Source of the DNA: Microcystis aeruginosa NIES-2549
Lineage (GTDB): Bacteria; Cyanobacteriota; Cyanobacteriia; Cyanobacteriales; Microcystaceae
Direction of reading: 5' to 3'
DNA length: 32,000 nt
NCBI RefSeq assembly: GCF_000981785.2
Contig: NZ_CP011304.1
Coordinates: 3,000,001 to 3,032,000 of the forward strand
Position numbers and translations under genes: made by a program
Notes under the pieces: model-generated
Databases searched by the model: none
Seen by the model: only the letters and a program-made list of their open reading frames with translations
Told to the model about the DNA's origin: nothing
Shown: piece after piece, positions 13,561 to 21,409 of the stretch
Layout of the letters: every line of letters starts with the position of its first letter
Numbering within the stretch: position 1 is the stretch's first letter

Positions 13561-14122
13561 GAGTTAATAGTATAACCCAGGGTTGGCCGAGCGGTTGAGG
13601 CAACGAACTCAGTGCGACGTACACAACCCCAGTCATGAGGGTGTAAATCCCCCCACCTTATCGGAAGGTGACTCCACAGCCCACTTCCTATCTCTGACAA
13701 AGATAGGGGGGGAAGCAAGGGCAAAAAAAGCTAGGAAAGACAAGTCCAGTCGGAACTAGAAAGTGGGAGTCTATATGGTTAGCGAAAGCGAACTCACGCC
13801 CGAACTACGGAAAAGTGCAGCAGTGAAAAGGACTGATACACTGCGACCAAAAGGTCAATACGGCCAGTGGTATAACCTATGTTGAGTAATAGGAATCCGA
13901 TTACCCAGACCGTACCGTAGAAAGTGAGAACCTAAGTGGACAAACAATGACAGGGGAATAAGGTACGGGAACCTCCAGACTCTCAACCTACTACCGTAGG
14001 AGATTAAGTCAAAATCTGAGAATGGGGGGAAGGAACTTATCTCAAGCCAAAGCTCTACCGTAATAGTAGAGATATGCCGAAAGATAAGTGGCTACATCAG
14101 AGTAAATCAACAGGTTGAACTT

Positions 14123-15853
14123 ATGTCTAAGGCTCAAGAAGCAGAATGGATACAAGTGGATTGGACAAACATCCAATACACCGTATCAAAGTTACAATCC
14201 AAAATTTACGAAGCATCCCTAAAGGGTGACAAAAGTTCGGTTGTTAAATACCAGAAAATCCTAATTAACTCTTTCAAAGCTAAATTACTAGCCGTAAGAA
14301 GAGTGACACAGGATAACAAAGGTAAGAGAACGGCAGGAATAGACGGCAAGAAAATCCTCAATTACGAGGAAAGAATCAAACTAGCTGAAAACCTGAAACT
14401 AGATGGTAAGGCAACGCCACTGAGGAGAGTAGAAATACCCAAATCAAACGGAAAAACCAGAAATCTAGGAATCCCCACCATAGAGGATAGAGCCAAGCAA
14501 GCATTAGCGAAAATGGCACTAGAACCCGAATGGGAAGCTAAATTCGAGCCTAACAGCTACGGATTCAGACCAGGTAGAGGCTGTCATGATGCTATAGATG
14601 CCATCGAACTCCAAGTCCGTCGAAAAACCAAGTACGTCTTGGATGCGGATATCAGTGGCTGTTTTGATAACATCAAACACTCAGCGATAATCGAGAAATG
14701 CAATACTTTTCCAGTCATGGAAACCCAAATCAGAGCTTGGCTAAAAAGCGGAGTAATGGTGGGGGATGTATTTCATCAAACCGAAAAAGGCACACCACAG
14801 GGGGGAGTAATATCTCCGTTACTGGCAAACATAGCTTTACACGGTTTAGAAACTCACATTTCAACCAAATTCCCTTGTAGAAAGACCAGAATAGGTCAGA
14901 CTAACGGAAAAATGGAGGAAATAGGGGAAGCTAGATTAATCAGATACGCTGATGACTTTGTTGTACTTCATGCCAGAGAAGAAACAATCAAAGCAGTCAA
15001 GATTGAGGTAGAGAACTGGCTAAAGGATTTGGGATTAAGCCTAAATCCTGAAAAAACCAGAATAGGTCATACTAAAGAGGAATACAACGGTGAAAAACCT
15101 GGACTTGACTTTTTGGGATTTAATATCAGAACCCATGATATAGGGAAATATAAATCCAATAAGAAAGGAAATGGGGAACCACTAATGATGTTAACTAAAG
15201 TTAAACCATCGGAGAAATCGGTGGAACAATTTATCAACAACATCAAAGAAATCCTCAATAGTGGACACGATAAAGCCCCGATAATAATGATTAACCAATT
15301 AAGCTGGTTAATCAGAGGATGGGCAAACTACTTCAAAATAGGAAGCCATTCATGGGAAACCTTTGGGCGACTAGAATTTCACAGGCTAAACAAGCTATAC
15401 CTAAACTGGGGAAGGAAAAGATTCGCCAAAGAAGGAATAGGGTACATTAGTAAAAAAATATTCCACCAAACATCCAAATCCAAATACACTTTCGGATGGA
15501 AGATTGGAGACAAAAAATATACAGTACCTACCCTATACGATTTCCCATACACCCAACATATCAAGGTAAAAGGAAATAAAAGCCCTTACGACGGAGATTG
15601 GGTATATTGGACAAAAAGAATGGCAGACCATCCGCAAGCCCCAAAAGATATAACTTACGGGATAAAACAGCAGCAAGGTAAATGCTACATCTGTGGACAA
15701 AACCTAACTGTAGAAGATTCCCTAGAGATACATCATATAGACGGAAACAGGGAAAACAACAAAAAAACGAACAAGGCAATAGTGCATAACTACTGTCACA
15801 AGTCACACCATAGAATGGCGGTATCTCTCCAAGAGATATTGGATGTAGCTTGA
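14123..15853 (+). CDS. Group II intron-encoded protein: reverse transcriptase / maturase (X) / HNH endonuclease
   Basis: RT motifs IPKSNGKTRNLGIPTIEDR, YGFRPGRGCHDA, LDADISGCFDNI, GTPQGGVISPLLANI and YADDFVV. X domain RGWANYFK. C-terminal HNH region CYICG...HHIDGNRENN...HNYCHKSHH. Confidence 0.95.
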   Translation: MSKAQEAEWIQVDWTNIQYTVSKLQSKIYEASLKGDKSSVVKYQKILINSFKAKLLAVRRVTQDNKGKRTAGIDGKKILNYEERIKLAENLKLDGKATPLRRVEIPKSNGKTRNLGIPTIEDRAKQALAKMALEPEWEAKFEPNSYGFRPGRGCHDAIDAIELQVRRKTKYVLDADISGCFDNIKHSAIIEKCNTFPVMETQIRAWLKSGVMVGDVFHQTEKGTPQGGVISPLLANIALHGLETHISTKFPCRKTRIGQTNGKMEEIGEARLIRYADDFVVLHAREETIKAVKIEVENWLKDLGLSLNPEKTRIGHTKEEYNGEKPGLDFLGFNIRTHDIGKYKSNKKGNGEPLMMLTKVKPSEKSVEQFINNIKEILNSGHDKAPIIMINQLSWLIRGWANYFKIGSHSWETFGRLEFHRLNKLYLNWGRKRFAKEGIGYISKKIFHQTSKSKYTFGWKIGDKKYTVPTLYDFPYTQHIKVKGNKSPYDGDWVYWTKRMADHPQAPKDITYGIKQQQGKCYICGQNLTVEDSLEIHHIDGNRENNKKTNKAIVHNYCHKSHHRMAVSLQEILDVA

Positions 15854-15926
15854 AGCCGTGTGCGGTGAAAGTCGCACGCACGGTTTTGCAGCCGAGCTAA
15901 TCAAGTAATTGGTTAGTTTAGGTAAC
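15853..15926 (+). other. Group II intron domains V and VI (catalytic hairpin and branch-point helix)
   Basis: AAGCCGTGTGCGGT-GAAA-GTCGCACGCACGGTTT, followed by CCGAGCTAATCAA-GTAA-TTGGTTAGTTT-A-GG and TAAC. Confidence 0.8.
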
Positions 15927-16001
15927 TAATTCGTGCTAGGCAGGTTCAACTCCTGCACCCTGGATAGTTTTGATGGCTTCAGGCGATCAGCTTTGACTGC
16001 A

Positions 16002-16151
16002 CTAGAGTAGTCGGCGGTGACAGATTACCTGACCATTTTCGGCTGCTTTGAGAACAGAAATACAATCATTAATTTTATCCTTTTCATTTTTCAGGAAAGC
16101 TAAAAAAACACAAGAATCCCAGTAGTGTAGCTTTTTTGTTGGACGAATCAC
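16002..16151 (-). pseudogene. Truncated/frameshifted PIN-domain (VapC-like) toxin gene fragment
   Basis: A GTG start overlaps the upstream stop (GTGA). Translation MIRPTKKLHYWDSCVFLAFLKNEKDKINDCISVLKAAENGQVI.. matches PIN N-termini (first acidic residue, xxDSxVFxAxL). The frame breaks after about 44 aa and the remainder is missing before the tRNA. Confidence 0.45.
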
Positions 16152-17018
16152 TTACTTTCTCCCAAAATTCCGATCATTTCCTCAATGGTAGGTAAATCTT
16201 TTTCCTGAGGAAAAAGATCAATTGACTCAACTTTAATCCCGATTTTTTCCCCATCTTCTCTAGAGGTAACTATCCCCGATACAGAGACTCTTTTTTCTAG
16301 ATATTCTTTGATATTATCAAGTAAATTTGGTTCAAAGTAACATTTAACACTTTTATTAGTCAATAAATTGTAAACTCTAAAAATAGGTTGACGACTTACA
16401 TCAATAGCTTTAAGTAGTCGTGCAAAATTAATTTCCTAGTGAAGATAGGCAAGAGGCAAGGGGCAAGAGGCAAGAGGTGGTTAGATATGTGTAATTAATT
16501 TTGCTTAGGTACTTAAGCACACCTTCTACAGTACCAAAACTTTGATATTTTCCCCCGATAATTTCATCAACATTAGCAATCAAAGCTTGATTCAAGTCGA
16601 TACACCTCGAATCAAAGCCCAATTGCACCATAAACTCATCTCTTTTTTTCAATATTGCTAATGATCGCGCACTTTCTAAAGCTCGATCAGAAAAATACTT
16701 AGGGCGAATCGGATGTTCTAAAATTGTTACTATTCCCCTTTCTACAGTCTTAATAACTTCAGAAATTTGACTAGGTGTGATCTGATCTTGAGGCATTCCT
16801 TCTAAAGTAAGATGAATGCTGCCACTATGAATTTGAGAGATTCTCCAATTTATCAGGAGGCGATTTTTGTTAGCAAGGGTTTTATCTACTTCATGGAGTA
16901 GTATTGCTAATTGTTCTTGAGCCTTGATAAATTTATCAAAAGACAACAGTGAGCCTTCTATATCTAGTGTTAGGCTCTTGATTGTTTCCTTCGATATAGG
17001 GCTTTCCCCTTTAGTCAT
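16148..17018 (-). pseudogene. Unknown-function gene (255 aa when repaired) disrupted by a MITE insertion
   Basis: Track ORFs 16428-17018 and 16148-16363 are its two halves. The tail of the first ORF (..YLSKINYTYLTTSCLLPLASCLSSLGN*) is encoded by the MITE. Removing 103 bp restores the frame ..FGTVEGVLKAIDVSRQPIFRVYNLLTNKSVKCYF... Confidence 0.7.
16410..16516. mobile_element. 107-bp MITE with imperfect 24-bp terminal inverted repeats and a TTAA at both ends
   Basis: The left end is TTAAGTAGTCGTGCAAAATTAATT. The reverse complement of the right end is TTAAGTACCTAAGCAAAATTAATT. TTAA lies at 16410-16413 and 16513-16516. A second family member sits at 1180-1256. Confidence 0.75.
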
Positions 17019-17140
17019 GGCTCTAGGAATCGTGATAATTATCTCAAGTGTAAAGGTTTTGGCTAACTACTAAAGCTTCCTACTTTACATTTTTACATGA
17101 ACTAACCCTAAAGCCTAAACTAGGTTGACCTATAACCACA

Positions 17141-17162
17141 AAAAAACCCGCTGGCGCGGGCT
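17141..17162 (-). terminator. Probable original tkt terminator, now separated from tkt by the R-M insertion
   Basis: On the minus strand, G-CCCGC-gcca-GCGGG is followed by TTTTTT. It lies about 20 nt downstream of the duplicated tkt 3' fragment. Confidence 0.55.
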
Positions 17163-17183
17163 TTTTTCACAAAAGCAAAGTTT

Positions 17184-17247
17184 TAATTAACCTAACAACG
17201 CTTTTGCCTTCGCTACCACGTTATCCACGGTAAAACCGAACTTCTCT
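17184..17247. repeat. 64-bp direct repeat, copy 1: orphan duplicate of the tkt 3' end (last 20 codons, stop, and 3 nt)
   Basis: Base-for-base identical to 19400-19463; both copies were compared by hand. Confidence 0.95.
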
Positions 17248-17317
17248 GACATTCCTAGATAAAATATCGTAATTTTGTTAAAATAATCTCAAAGAAAAGC
17301 CTCTAAAATCAAAGGTA

Positions 17318-18211
17318 ATGTCCAAAATCGCTAAAAAACTTAGTAATTCTCCTTTTCGTTATCCTGGCGGTAAATTTTATGCCCGTAAGCTAATCTTAGC
17401 TTGTCTTCCTAGTCACCATAAGTATTGTGAACCTTTTGCGGGGGGAGCATCTATATTCTTTGCTAAGGAAAGTGTAGCAGAGAATATTCTCAATGACAAA
17501 GATGAGGAATTAATGAACTGTTATCGACATATCAAAGATCATCTTGATAGTCTAATTGAATTATTAAAAGATCTAAACGCTACCAAAGAATTACACAATT
17601 ATTATAAAAATGAATTTCAACCAGCCAATGACCTAGAAAGAGCCATGCGTTGGTATTATCTAAATAGAACTTCCTACTCAGGAATTATGAAACTTGAAAA
17701 TTGTTATTGGGGCTATGGTGATAAGTATTCTATGCGTCCTGAAAACTGGCCTTCTCACCTAAAAACCACTTCGGAAAAACTGCAAAATGTCAATTTATCT
17801 TGTTTAGATTTTGAAGATTTAATCAATCAATTACCCGATGATTACTTTTTATTTGTCGATCCTCCTTACTTTCAAGCAGATCAAAATAAATTCTATTCCT
17901 GCTTCTTCAGTCTAGAAGATCATGAAAGGTTATGTAAGACGTTGAAAAAACATCAACATCGATTTAAATTTCTTTTGACTTATGATAATTGCTCCGAAAT
18001 TAGAGAAATGTATGATTGGTGTATTTCTTTACAAGATAATGAATGGAATTACACTATTAATCGAACTGATGATCAAAAAAATGGTTTAAAATTAGAACAT
18101 GGTTATCAGAGTGAAAGACGCAAGGGCAAGGAGGTATTTATTGCTAATTATGATCTTGAGAAACCTGCAAGATTTACACCTCTACAATTAAGTTTATTCG
18201 ATGTATCTTGA
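17318..18211 (+). CDS. Dam-class (D12, alpha-group) N6-adenine DNA methyltransferase
   Basis: FRYPGGK, EPFAGGASIFF (motif I), NDKDEELMNCY, YYLNRTSYSG and FVDPPY (motif IV). Confidence 0.9.
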   Translation: MSKIAKKLSNSPFRYPGGKFYARKLILACLPSHHKYCEPFAGGASIFFAKESVAENILNDKDEELMNCYRHIKDHLDSLIELLKDLNATKELHNYYKNEFQPANDLERAMRWYYLNRTSYSGIMKLENCYWGYGDKYSMRPENWPSHLKTTSEKLQNVNLSCLDFEDLINQLPDDYFLFVDPPYFQADQNKFYSCFFSLEDHERLCKTLKKHQHRFKFLLTYDNCSEIREMYDWCISLQDNEWNYTINRTDDQKNGLKLEHGYQSERRKGKEVFIANYDLEKPARFTPLQLSLFDVS

Positions 18212-18220
18212 TTCCTAATT

Positions 18221-19051
18221 TTAATCAAGTAAATCCTCTATTTTTTCGATAGGTAGCCATGGTTGTAGAGGTTCAGCCGTATTAACATCAAAGAAAATTT
18301 TGGGATAATTAGGGATGAAATTACAGTTTTGATCCTGGCATTTCTGGCGAGAACAATTGATATTATTGGTTTGATTTGCTGTTAAATCTTTACTTCTGGC
18401 AACGTACATTTTTAAAAGGGCTTCTTCTTGATTATTAATATTAATTTTGCTTAAAAATATTTGCTCTTTTGGTGTGGGATTCCAAACAAATAGTCCTGTT
18501 TCTAAATTGGTCTGAAAAAAAGCATTGGCAAGAGATGTAATCACTAAATCAAAATCTGTTTCAATATATTGATCTTTGTGAATATTGAGGCTTGTTGAAG
18601 GTATTCCTATCAATTTAGACCTTTGTTCTGCCGCTTTGTCTCCTAAGGTTCTTGATCTCATACATTTGACTTCAATAAAAGGTCTGATACCTCCCTGAAG
18701 ACGGAAACTACCTTTTTTGGCTAACTTACATTCAGCAGAGTATTTTTTGGCGTTTTTTTGATTGATAATAGCTACATCTATATCGTGAGAACCAGCTTGA
18801 GGATTTAAGCGAGGATTAGTAACTAAATAATTATTCGCGAGTATTTTTGACAGTTTATCTTGTACAGTGAACTCAAAAAACTTGCCACGAATCATAGGAA
18901 TAACTTTTGGATCATTGAGAACTTCTGTAATATATTTGATATTCAAACTATAACTCTTACAAAAACTTTCTATTTTTTCAAACCATTCCCATTCAAGCTC
19001 GTTATCATGCAAAAACTGCTCAAGCAATTTAATCAAATCTTCTGACATCAT
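18221..19051 (-). CDS. Putative type II restriction endonuclease (PD-(D/E)xK-like)
   Basis: 276 aa. It converges on M (9 bp between the stops) and overlaps the C-gene stop by 23 nt. A candidate catalytic core is GKFFEF...SHDIDVAI...SAECKLAKK. No family recognised. Confidence 0.7.
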   Translation of the reverse strand: MMSEDLIKLLEQFLHDNELEWEWFEKIESFCKSYSLNIKYITEVLNDPKVIPMIRGKFFEFTVQDKLSKILANNYLVTNPRLNPQAGSHDIDVAIINQKNAKKYSAECKLAKKGSFRLQGGIRPFIEVKCMRSRTLGDKAAEQRSKLIGIPSTSLNIHKDQYIETDFDLVITSLANAFFQTNLETGLFVWNPTPKEQIFLSKININNQEEALLKMYVARSKDLTANQTNNINCSRQKCQDQNCNFIPNYPKIFFDVNTAEPLQPWLPIEKIEDLLD

Positions 19052-19289
19052 CAGTATTTACATCGGAATTTATAGACATAGTGTTAAAAAGCTCCGAAAG
19101 ACTTATGTTTAATGCTCTACATAAAGAAATCAAGCATAGTAAAGAAGGATTCCTTTTACCACGTTCAAGAAGACTGATGTAAGTTCTATCCAAATTGGCC
19201 GCTTCGGCCAACCTTTCTTGGGATAAACCCTTTTGAATACGAGCATTATGTAAACATCTGCCAAATTGAGCTAAATTGTCCTTTGCCAT
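19029..19289 (-). CDS. Controller (C) protein, XRE-type HTH regulator of the R-M system
   Basis: MAKDNLAQFGRCLHNARIQKGLSQERLAEAANLDRTYISLLERGKRNPSLLCLISLCRAL. About 86 aa from the ATG at 19289. The track's GTG start at 19340 lies inside the C-box. Confidence 0.8.
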   Translation of the reverse strand: MAKDNLAQFGRCLHNARIQKGLSQERLAEAANLDRTYISLLERGKRNPSLLCLISLCRALNISLSELFNTMSINSDVNTDDVRRFD

Positions 19290-19312
19290 GCTTCGATTAA
19301 ACTGCCTGACGT

Positions 19313-19338
19313 GACCCCTAGTCCACTGACTGACAGTC
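19313..19338 (-). promoter_or_regulatory. C-box operator (two GACT-N3-(A/G)GTC palindromes separated by AGTG)
   Basis: The minus strand reads GACTGTCAGTC-AGTG-GACTAGGGGTC, 23 nt upstream of the C-gene ATG. This is the same architecture as the C.PvuII/C.AhdI-type operators. Confidence 0.7.
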
Positions 19339-19351
19339 ACAATAGAAAAAC

Positions 19352-19381
19352 AAAAAAATGAGCCAGATTTTTCTGACTCAT
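19352..19381 (-). terminator. Rho-independent terminator between the tkt stop and the C-box
   Basis: On the minus strand, ATGAGTCAGA-aaaa-TCTGGCTCAT (10 bp, one G-U pair) is followed by TTTTTTT. Confidence 0.7.
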
Positions 19382-19399
19382 TACAGCTAAGATTTCAGG

Positions 19400-19463
19400 T
19401 AATTAACCTAACAACGCTTTTGCCTTCGCTACCACGTTATCCACGGTAAAACCGAACTTCTCT
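19400..19463. repeat. 64-bp direct repeat, copy 2: the functional 3' end of tkt
   Basis: Identical to 17184-17247. Confidence 0.95.
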
Positions 19464-21409
19464 AGAATCACACCCCCCGGAGCAGAAGCGCCGAAGGTAT
19501 CAACCCCCAACACATCCCCCTCATCGGTGATGTAGCGATGCCAACCCATAGTTGAACCCGCTTCCACCGCGAGACGTTTTTTCACTGCTTTCGGCAGTAC
19601 CGATTCTTTGTATTCTGCCGATTGTTCCTCGAATAGCTCCCAACAGGGCATAGAAACGACGCGAGCTTTAATTCCTGCCTCTTTTAACACCGCAGCCGCT
19701 TTATCGCAGAGATACAACTCGCCACCCGTACCGATGAGAATGACATCGGGAGTACCTTCACAATCGGTGATAATATAAGCACCTTTAGCCACACCCGCAA
19801 GGGAAGTTCCCGCTAAATTGGGCAGATTTTGACGGGATAATGCTAGTAACGTCGGGCGCTTAGTTTCGCTCACCGCTACTTTATAAGCACCGGAAGTTTC
19901 CGTACCATCTCCCGGACGCATGACTAACAGGTTAGGAATAGCGCGCAGAGAAGCAACGTGTTCCACGGGTTGGTGAGTCGGTCCATCTTCCCCGAGGGCA
20001 ATGGAATCGTGAGTCATTACCCAGATGACGCGGGTTTCTGACAATGCCGATAAACGGATAGAATTCCGCATATAGTCGGTGAAAATCAGGAAAGTTGCCC
20101 CGTAGGGAATCAATCCCGTGTTATGGAGAGCAATCCCGTTACAAATCGCCCCCATCGCGTGTTCCCGCACGCCAAAATGGACGTTACGCTCCTGATAACT
20201 GCCTTTTTGGAAATTACCAAAATGCTCTAATTCCGTGTAGTTAGAGTGGGTTAAATCCGCCGAACCACCGATTAAACCGGGTAAAACCCCCGCAAGGGCA
20301 TTTAAGCAGATTTCCGAGTGTTTACGACTAGCGAGAGCCTTATCTTCGGGTTTATAAACCGGTAAAGCTTGCTCCCAACCTTCCGGCAGTTGACCGGTGG
20401 TTAACTGTTCAAATAAAGCGGCTTCTGCGGGATATTTAGCCTGATATTCGTTAAATAACTTATTCCAGTCCGTTTCTGCCGTCGCTCCCTTGTCCACTGC
20501 TTGTCGGAAACGATTTAACACCTCATCGGGAACCACAAACGGCTCGTACTGCCAACCTAAGGCTTTCCGGGTTAACTCGATTTCCGTTGCTCCTAAAGCT
20601 GCCCCGTGAACATCGGCGGTATTAGACTTATTGGGGGAACCATAACCGATGGTGGTGGTGATTTTAATCATCGAGGGTTTATCGGTGACAGCTTTGGCAG
20701 CTGCGATCGCATTGGCAATGGCATCTAAATCGGTGTTACCATTCTCGACGTGCTGAACGTGCCAACCGTAGGCTTCAAAACGCTTGCTCACGTCCTCGGT
20801 AAAAGCGATATCGGTGGAACCATCGATCGAGATATGGTTATCATCGTAGAGAGCGATTAACTTGCCTAAACCCCAGTGACCGGCTAAAGAACAAGCTTCC
20901 CCGGAAATTCCCTCCATATTGCAACCATCACCCAAAATCACATAGGTGTAATGGTCGATAATTTTGGCATCCGGTTTGTTGAAACGGGCCGCTAAATGGG
21001 CTTCTGCTAGGGCCAAACCCACACCATTGGCAATCCCTTGACCCAGAGGACCGGTGGTCACTTCCACCCCTTCCGTGACGAAATTTTCGGGGTGGCCGGG
21101 GGTTTTCGATTTCCACTGCCGGAATTGTTTAATTTCCTCTAGGGGAACGCTATCGTATCCGGTCAGGTACATCAAAGCGTACTGCAGCATACAACCGTGA
21201 CCGGCGGAGAGAACAAAACGATCTCGATTGACCCATTGGGGGTTTTTCGGGTTAAAACGCAGGAATTGATCCCAGAGAACAAAGGCCATGGGAGCGGCTC
21301 CCATGGGCAGTCCGGGGTGTCCGGATTTAGCTTTTTCCACGGCATCCACCGCTAAAAAACGCACGGCATTAATACAAAGTTCTTCGAGGGATTGGGAGGC
21401 GACAACCAT
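19403..21409 (-). CDS. tkt: Transketolase
   Basis: 668 aa. Contains the ThDP motif region [24 protein letters not shown], and the C-terminal ..[12 protein letters not shown]. Confidence 0.95.

Follow-up and report, generated by a model that had tools for sequence, protein, structure and literature searches.

A C-controlled type II restriction-modification unit between repeats of the transketolase 3' end in Microcystis

The stretch analysed here (the window) is 32,000 nt of the genome of the bloom-forming cyanobacterium Microcystis aeruginosa NIES-2549 (contig NZ_CP011304.1, positions 3,000,001 to 3,032,000). It carries a type II restriction-modification (R-M) unit directly behind tkt, the gene for transketolase. 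The unit, called the cassette below, has genes for a controller protein (C), a restriction endonuclease (R) and a DNA methyltransferase (M), and it lies between two 64-bp direct repeats of the tkt 3' end. It probably entered Microcystis once, after tkt, by an insertion that duplicated a long stretch of the target, and the locus was later reshaped by recombination between the repeats. The anatomy of the unit, the homologies of its genes and its alleles in other strains were all established by analysis of the sequences. An earlier note, made from the window alone, had described the locus as a clean and recent R-M insertion into the 3' end of tkt with a perfect 64-bp target duplication. The duplication was confirmed; the words clean and recent do not describe the locus once other strains are compared.

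The insertion site and the 64-bp repeat

The two 64-bp copies are 100% identical, and the bases immediately outside them differ at both ends. The repeat is not due to chance, because it is an exact 64-mer repeated within 32 kb. In each copy, 1 nt of a Leu codon is followed by 19 sense codons, the stop codon and 3 further nt. The stop codon and the 3 nt of tkt had been recognized before, but the "last 20 codons" of the earlier description are actually 19 sense codons and 1 nt. The last 58 coding nt and the stop codon of tkt fall within the first copy. The insert between the copies is 2152 bp long, A+T-rich, and holds C, R and M. Judged by its sequence the unit is complete and apparently intact, with the order C-R followed by a convergent M. 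Tkt has the same sequence as AKE65368.1, and M the same as AKE65366.1, both from M. aeruginosa NIES-2549. The features of the locus, in the direction of tkt transcription, are as follows.

19403 to 21409, minus strand: tkt, transketolase, intact (TIGR00232, 983 bits; Pfam Transketolase_N, pyr and C).
19400 to 19463: first copy of the 64-bp direct repeat, the functional tkt 3' end, present in 35 of the 35 Microcystis loci examined.
19347 to 19382, minus strand: cassette-borne intrinsic terminator, 20 nt past the tkt stop and upstream of the C-box.
19313 to 19338, minus strand: C-box operator GACTGTCAGTCAGTGGACTAGGGGTC, composed of OL GACTGTCAGTC, the spacer AGTG and OR GACTAGGGGTC.
19296 to 19301, minus strand: -10-like element TTTAAT, 6 nt ahead of the C start codon.
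19029 to 19289, minus strand: C gene, controller protein of 86 aa with the recognition helix DRTY (Pfam HTH_3).
18221 to 19051, minus strand: R gene, type II restriction endonuclease of 276 aa (PADLOC REase_II, 6.4e-69, full length).
17318 to 18211, plus strand: M gene, alpha-class D12-family DNA methyltransferase of 297 aa (PF02086, 3e-33).
17248 to 17317, plus strand: upstream region of M, the right end of the insert, with the promoter-like TAGATA, 17 nt, TAAAAT at 17256-17284 (consensus scan).
17184 to 17247: second copy of the 64-bp direct repeat, the orphan, non-coding tkt 3' end, preceded in every strain by the cassette end GGAATGTC.
17141 to 17166, minus strand: original tkt terminator, a GC hairpin at 17147-17160 with A-run and T-run arms (-17.4 kcal/mol).

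The G+C content is 0.28-0.36 in the interior of the insert and 0.48-0.53 in tkt, and is about 0.5 in tkt and fabF. Low G+C is not confined to the insert; it extends left beyond the orphan copy to about 16000.

Both hairpins that the earlier note had named as terminators fold as intrinsic terminators on the tkt strand. The cassette-borne one has an 11-bp stem and a 4-nt loop at 19382-19357 plus a T-run (-14.8 kcal/mol, z-score of -3.1), and it is missing from cassette-free alleles. In the cassette-free loci L099, L102 and L103 (loci compared with the window are designated by L numbers), the original terminator directly follows the single 64-bp copy.

A single insertion directly behind tkt would have duplicated the last 58 coding nt, the stop codon and 3 nt, by a molecular route that we infer. 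Because the tkt C-terminus would have been duplicated at insertion, tkt would have stayed intact, and the orphan copy now precedes the old terminator. The cassette hairpin would now end tkt transcription and may shield the C-box promoter from read-through.

At both of its edges (19461-19466 and 17183-17190) the duplicated segment ends inside a palindrome of the target. The tkt-internal edge splits TCT/AGA at its exact middle, and the terminator-side edge is at TTAATTA/A, which is whole in empty alleles. These palindromes could be coincidental or could hint at the position of a target break. TCTAGA is not depleted in Microcystis DNA (observed/expected ratio, O/E, of 0.75).

Distribution, age and decay

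The left junction of the cassette was found in 18 of the 18 loci obtained through three Tkt variants. Twenty more loci, obtained through C or M, all adjoin tkt, and the cassette was never found elsewhere. Every cassette-bearing locus has the same junction sequences, and the strains that carry them diverge by 2-4% in tkt and fabF. Two lineages have a 1-nt difference between their 64-bp copies, which lies in the tkt copy in the KW lineage (strain KW, CP086723) and in the orphan copy in L096. At least four different disruptions of R occur (114+207 aa; 189+62 aa; 221+62 aa; and a 5' truncation plus an insertion). M has stayed whole except in the KW lineage, where an IS66-like element lies inside it, and in L101. 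Identical junctions across diverged strains, the decay of R and M, and copies that have drifted 1 nt apart indicate one old event shared by these strains, and not the recent insertion that had been suggested. The unit is near-universal in Microcystis and intact in NIES-2549. R would have decayed repeatedly, with M mostly surviving, while the repeats recombined.

The IS66-family element (IS, insertion sequence) within M is found in the KW lineage (L089-L091, L114 and L117), and an ISL3-family element is found within the flanking module X of L112 and L120. Where strains have such IS elements, these inserted into M or X at a later time.

Empty, permuted and remnant-bearing alleles

Cassette-free alleles were sought in a metagenome collection with a pattern running from the tkt interior across the 64 bp into the beginning of the old terminator, which was validated on a synthetic empty site. 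It matched six metagenome contigs. Three of these, L099, L102 and L103, consist of tkt, one 64-bp copy and the 17141-17166 terminator, and R-M sequence is absent. They match exactly the empty site that had been predicted from the window, a single 64-bp copy followed by the 17141-17162 terminator. Downstream of this site are a Ser/Thr-kinase-GUN4 gene and PIN and HicB-like genes, and no recombinase. No cassette-free allele carries two copies, and M, R and C all fall in R-M families.

The other three contigs, L100, L101 and L104, have an empty-type junction at tkt and the terminator, followed by module X (a 255-aa gene plus a PIN gene), and then by a 5'-truncated R, M and another 64-bp copy with another terminator behind it. 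These alleles have a direct repeat of 172 bp (the 64 bp plus the terminator), and past its second copy they are colinear with the empty L102. An analogous permutation is found in L124 around module T (a 146-aa gene and one of about 912 aa). Most strains with the cassette have, 1.5-3.4 kb downstream, a second R fragment that is truncated. The right-hand breakpoint is the same in these fragments, and these downstream remnants form a clade of their own with diagnostic substitutions. The permuted forms with 172-bp repeats and the second, older R remnant are not what a clean insertion would look like. The permutations and remnants are most simply explained by a past two-copy state in which one copy was truncated, followed by recombination at the 64-bp or 172-bp repeats. 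Homologous recombination at this repeat (64 bp, or 172 bp with the terminator) would thus have produced deletions that gave empty alleles, permutations and two-copy states. The tkt 3' flank is a recombination hotspot.

The synteny past the variable modules also varies, among the KW lineage and L112, L120 and L129. Some strains have a CNNM/MltA side and others a TauE/M48-peptidase side, which makes the locus a breakpoint of larger rearrangements as well.

Several observations weigh against the reading of the locus as an R-M unit that entered once with a target duplication. On the tkt tree the three empty alleles group with the remnant-bearing L100 and L101, and for this reason they are probably secondary deletions and not the pre-insertion state. 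The terminator haplotype of the empty alleles is that of the first repeat copy of L101, and the haplotype data do not settle the deletion reading. The matches listed in a scan of genome contigs with Tkt included no outgroup that could be aligned in the non-coding flank and no empty site; the closest species representative among them has 82% Tkt identity. Around the homologous cassettes in Merismopedia, Vibrio and Chloroflexi no long direct repeats were found. The fold matches of R are weak (Foldseek; best E = 0.026, TM score at most 0.44).

The same alleles can also be read as the products of Campbell-type integration. A circle carrying C-R-M and one 64-bp copy would integrate at tkt by a single homologous crossover and could leave by the reverse reaction, and the 64-bp repeat would be a portable segment of homology and not a duplication made at insertion. 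The restriction of the cassette to tkt, the nesting of the empty alleles among remnant-bearing ones and the existence of permuted and two-copy-derived forms are all in line with this account. So is the sequence of the cassette, which is 98.8-99.4% identical between strains as against 97.5-98.2% for tkt and 96.2-97.1% for fabF, and which thereby suggests horizontal spread within the genus, although its lower divergence could reflect a different constraint. No circular form or three-copy genome was observed among these loci, and a first event joining the cassette to the tkt end would still be required. As an explanation of the locus, Campbell-type integration is possible and on the unlikely side; a cycle of excision and reintegration of this type is a serious complementary possibility. 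A cycle of excision, amplification and reinsertion is discussed for R-M units flanked by long repeats in PMC2853133.

Under the insertion with target duplication, the greater uniformity of the cassette relative to its flanks is compatible with later spread of a cassette allele by recombination within the genus. A more far-reaching proposal is that the tkt 3' flank is a natural docking site, at which an R-M unit cycles through excision, re-entry and permutation at its own duplication, and which is re-colonised by a fresh allele after decay. Support for re-colonisation comes from the R remnants adjacent to V, which form a separate clade, and from the intact cassettes, which are more uniform than the flanking core genes. 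We regard this proposal as doubtful. If true, it would be population-level evidence for a virus-like life cycle of R-M units flanked by long repeats, which to our knowledge has been proposed and never observed in nature.

The repeat could in principle also be older than the insertion, if a local tandem duplication of the tkt 3' end had been followed by an unrelated insertion of the cassette between the copies. Chance insertions between repeated sequences are one of the classes of Furuta et al. (PMC2853133). However, none of the 35 loci has adjacent 64-bp copies without a cassette, and the cassette-free alleles are single-copy, which makes this sequence of events extremely improbable.

Flanking modules

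Genomic islands commonly target the 3' ends of genes and restore them via a direct repeat. On such a reading the 64 bp would be attL and attR, belonging either to a small integrative element or to what is left of a larger island, integrated at the tkt 3' end by an integrase. The usual targeting of islands would fit, as would the flank beyond the orphan copy, which is A+T-rich and variable and holds toxin-antitoxin-like and defence-like genes. Against this, no tyrosine or serine recombinase gene was found in the unit or in the modules X, T, W and Z, and the repeat has two lengths, 64 bp or 172 bp depending on the arrangement, unlike a fixed att core. Integrase-mediated integration is highly improbable.

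Nor was an integrase or transposase found in the cassette or next to it. With a recombinase absent from every flanking module, integration by an integrase was rejected as an account of the locus.

Downstream of the orphan copy lies the A+T-rich module X (16002-17075, minus strand), which is degraded in the window. Its 196-aa open reading frame (ORF; 16428-17018) is a shortened form of the 255-aa protein, which has no family matches. What remains here of a 156-aa PIN-domain gene, intact in L096, L110 and L115, is a 49-aa ORF (16002-16151). The module X pair is probably toxin-antitoxin-like.

Module T follows the terminator in L001 (4778-8406) and is also found in L003, L094, L111, L116, L119 and L124. 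It has the 146-aa gene and a 912-aa gene (weak AAA_31; PADLOC candidate PDC-M28B, 2.6e-15), and its 141-aa ORF is really an R gene fragment (REase_II, 5e-27). Module T may be defence-island cargo.

A group II intron occupies 13612-15926 on the plus strand, with a reverse transcriptase/maturase ORF at 14123-15853 (RVT_1, RVT_N, GIIM) and RF00029 domain V/VI at 15851-15926. The insertion is strain-specific: in L101 and L102, window position 15927 immediately adjoins 13611.

The restriction endonuclease

The REase_II model that matches R over its full length is a REBASE-derived PADLOC model of type II endonucleases. No Pfam, NCBIfam or PDB sequence match to R was found (the PDB search gave noise), and an exact-sequence look-up of the present variant returned no record. 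At the search threshold R has 344 homologues, and 40 of them were aligned with it. The alignment has the invariant residues E60, D92 and E107-x-K109 plus three C-terminal cysteines. In the AlphaFold (AF2) model of R (pLDDT 94.5), E60 is on a helix, D92 starts one strand, and E107 and K109 are on the next strand; as modelled, this placement is the canonical PD-(D/E)xK layout. The Foldseek matches are dominated by PD-(D/E)xK enzymes, at the top I-Ssp6803I, HinP1I, SwaI, MunI, Hjc and RecU, and all are weak. Members of this superfamily have an alpha-beta-beta-beta-alpha-beta core that carries D...(D/E)xK on strands 2 and 3. The motif and the predicted secondary structure of R fit a putative PD-ExK-like nuclease, as had been read from the sequence. 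The homologues of R in Merismopedia, Vibrio vulnificus and Chloroflexi all lie tail-to-tail with a D12 methyltransferase, a pairing that is conserved in four phyla. The R family is uncharacterised and has no Pfam model, yet it is represented in REBASE-derived models.

The three cysteines, at residues 233, 238 and 243 (about 18323-18355 of the window), form an invariant C-x4-C-x4-C within CxRxKCx(4-7)CxFIPNYP. They suggest a structural metal site, atypical of simple PD-(D/E)xK enzymes.

Many R homologues of other cyanobacteria (P0057, P0067, P0082 and others) carry the annotation of one protein, 328-355 aa long, that has an XRE-type helix-turn-helix (HTH) at its N-terminus, for example in Rippkaea orientalis PCC 8801 and Cyanobacterium aponinum. 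Either C and R are truly fused in these, or overlapping genes for the two were called wrongly.

The controller protein and its operator

C is located just upstream of R, and the two genes share a 23-nt overlap. Its solved relatives are C.BclI (8.4e-15) and C.AhdI (3.5e-12), and it matches the PADLOC Control_protein model (1.2e-16). The C-box reads GACT-GTC-AGTC-AGTG-GACT-AGG-GGTC, and its OR overlaps the -35-like TGGACT. The published consensus is GACT-N3-AGTC-N4-GACT-N3-AGTC with a central GT (PMC2175313); 15 of the 16 symmetry positions and the central GT agree with it. The C-box is the sole match in the window (0 expected in 100 shuffles). Both the protein family and the unique operator at 19313-19338 uphold the C protein and C-box of the earlier description. 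A nearly identical C-box is found upstream of the Merismopedia orthologue, despite an R there that is only 61% identical.

The -10-like TTTAAT is at the same spacing before C in Merismopedia (L105). A TTTAAT 6 nt before the ATG in both genera suggests a leaderless C-R mRNA, and leaderless C mRNAs are known for PvuII (PMC2175313). One mRNA would carry C and R from the C-box promoter, probably leaderless and with translation coupled via the 23-nt overlap. M, as in characterised C-dependent systems, would be made from its own promoter. By the PvuII/AhdI paradigm, C at OL would activate and C at OR would repress. With C-dependent activation followed by repression, R should appear only after the genome has been methylated. 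On sequence grounds the control circuit is a standard C-box circuit.

The methyltransferase and the recognition site

M is convergent with R, with a 9-nt gap between them. It exceeds the cut-off of TIGR00571 (122 bits vs 114.85) and matches PADLOC MTase_II (2.7e-81). Its motifs are FAGGAS (motif I) at 40-45 and DPPY at 181-184, and because motif I precedes DPPY the enzyme is alpha-class. No C-box was found in the region upstream of M (17248-17317), allowing up to 2 mismatches.

M had been described as Dam-class. The fold family is correct, but M is not a Dam orthologue. It scores 56.8 bits against a cut-off of 441 for the Dam equivalog model NF008152, and its nearest solved relative is M.CbeI (1.9e-27), ahead of DpnM (1e-17) and Dam (5e-13). 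Since M.CbeI is an N4-cytosine enzyme, m6A in GATC cannot be assumed for M. Enzymes of the M.CbeI and M.Ssp6803II type make GG(m4)CC (PMC8616854, PMC6105098). M.Ssp6803II, for which this product is proven, is one of the PF02086 enzymes of cyanobacteria.

Palindromes were counted in 59 kb of non-redundant Microcystis DNA (the window plus the loci). GATC, GGCC and TGCA all have an O/E of about 0.65, and TGATCA, the BclI site, is not depleted. Palindrome depletion in these 59 kb singles out no recognition site for the present R-M unit. No usable NIES-2549 methylome or REBASE assignment was found in the literature.

At least 16 of the 64 hexamer palindromes are wholly absent from the same DNA, for example ACTAGT, GCTAGC and TTCGAA (8-9 of each expected). 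Such extreme avoidance agrees with reports of a very large R-M repertoire in Microcystis.

Significance and comparison with known systems

Filled, empty, permuted and decayed alleles are all available at this locus, which makes it a well-resolved natural example of R-M insertion. A selfish defence unit can enter beside an essential gene harmlessly when it duplicates the gene end and supplies a replacement terminator, and the long repeat left by the insertion then drives local genome plasticity. Microcystis has unusually many R-M systems, and these are a barrier to its genetic manipulation. A near-universal unit that is intact in NIES-2549 and encodes an endonuclease of an uncharacterised family is a target for methylome assignment and for better transformation.

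The kind of event is already known (Furuta et al. 2010), and no new principle is involved; the rearrangements at the population level are the most interesting aspect. Furuta et al. 2010 (PMC2853133) define this class by R and M genes that are both within the insert, an insert of <20 kb and a direct repeat of >30 bp. In size, repeat and gene content the present locus agrees with the long-target-duplication type of R-M insertion (Nobusato et al. 2000; Furuta, Abe and Kobayashi 2010). As in that class, a mobility gene is absent, and a related genome has a single copy against which the repeat aligns. The present locus differs in that the C-terminus of an essential gene is preserved and in its many secondary rearrangements across the population. 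One Microcystis case is listed by Furuta et al. (NIES-843 vs PCC 7806, 88/88 bp; PMC2853133). It is probably a different locus, since the repeat here is 64 bp, and 172 bp in the permuted alleles.

The control region resembles the PvuII, AhdI, BclI and Esp1396I circuits. The nearest relatives of C are C.BclI and C.AhdI, its gene overlaps that of R, and the operator has the form GACT-N3-AGTC-N4-GACT-N3-(G)GTC with a central GT, its half-box 2A overlapping a -35-like element. C-R and M are convergent, as in the AhdI and Esp1396I systems (PMC2275141). Unlike in those circuits, the spacer is AGTG, where CGTG is typical for DR(T/S)Y helices, and the last half-box is GGTC. M resembles M.CbeI and M.Ssp6803II in belonging to PF02086 and in its motif order, FxGxG followed by DPPY. 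M.Ssp6803II is an orphan enzyme, whereas the present M is paired with an R.

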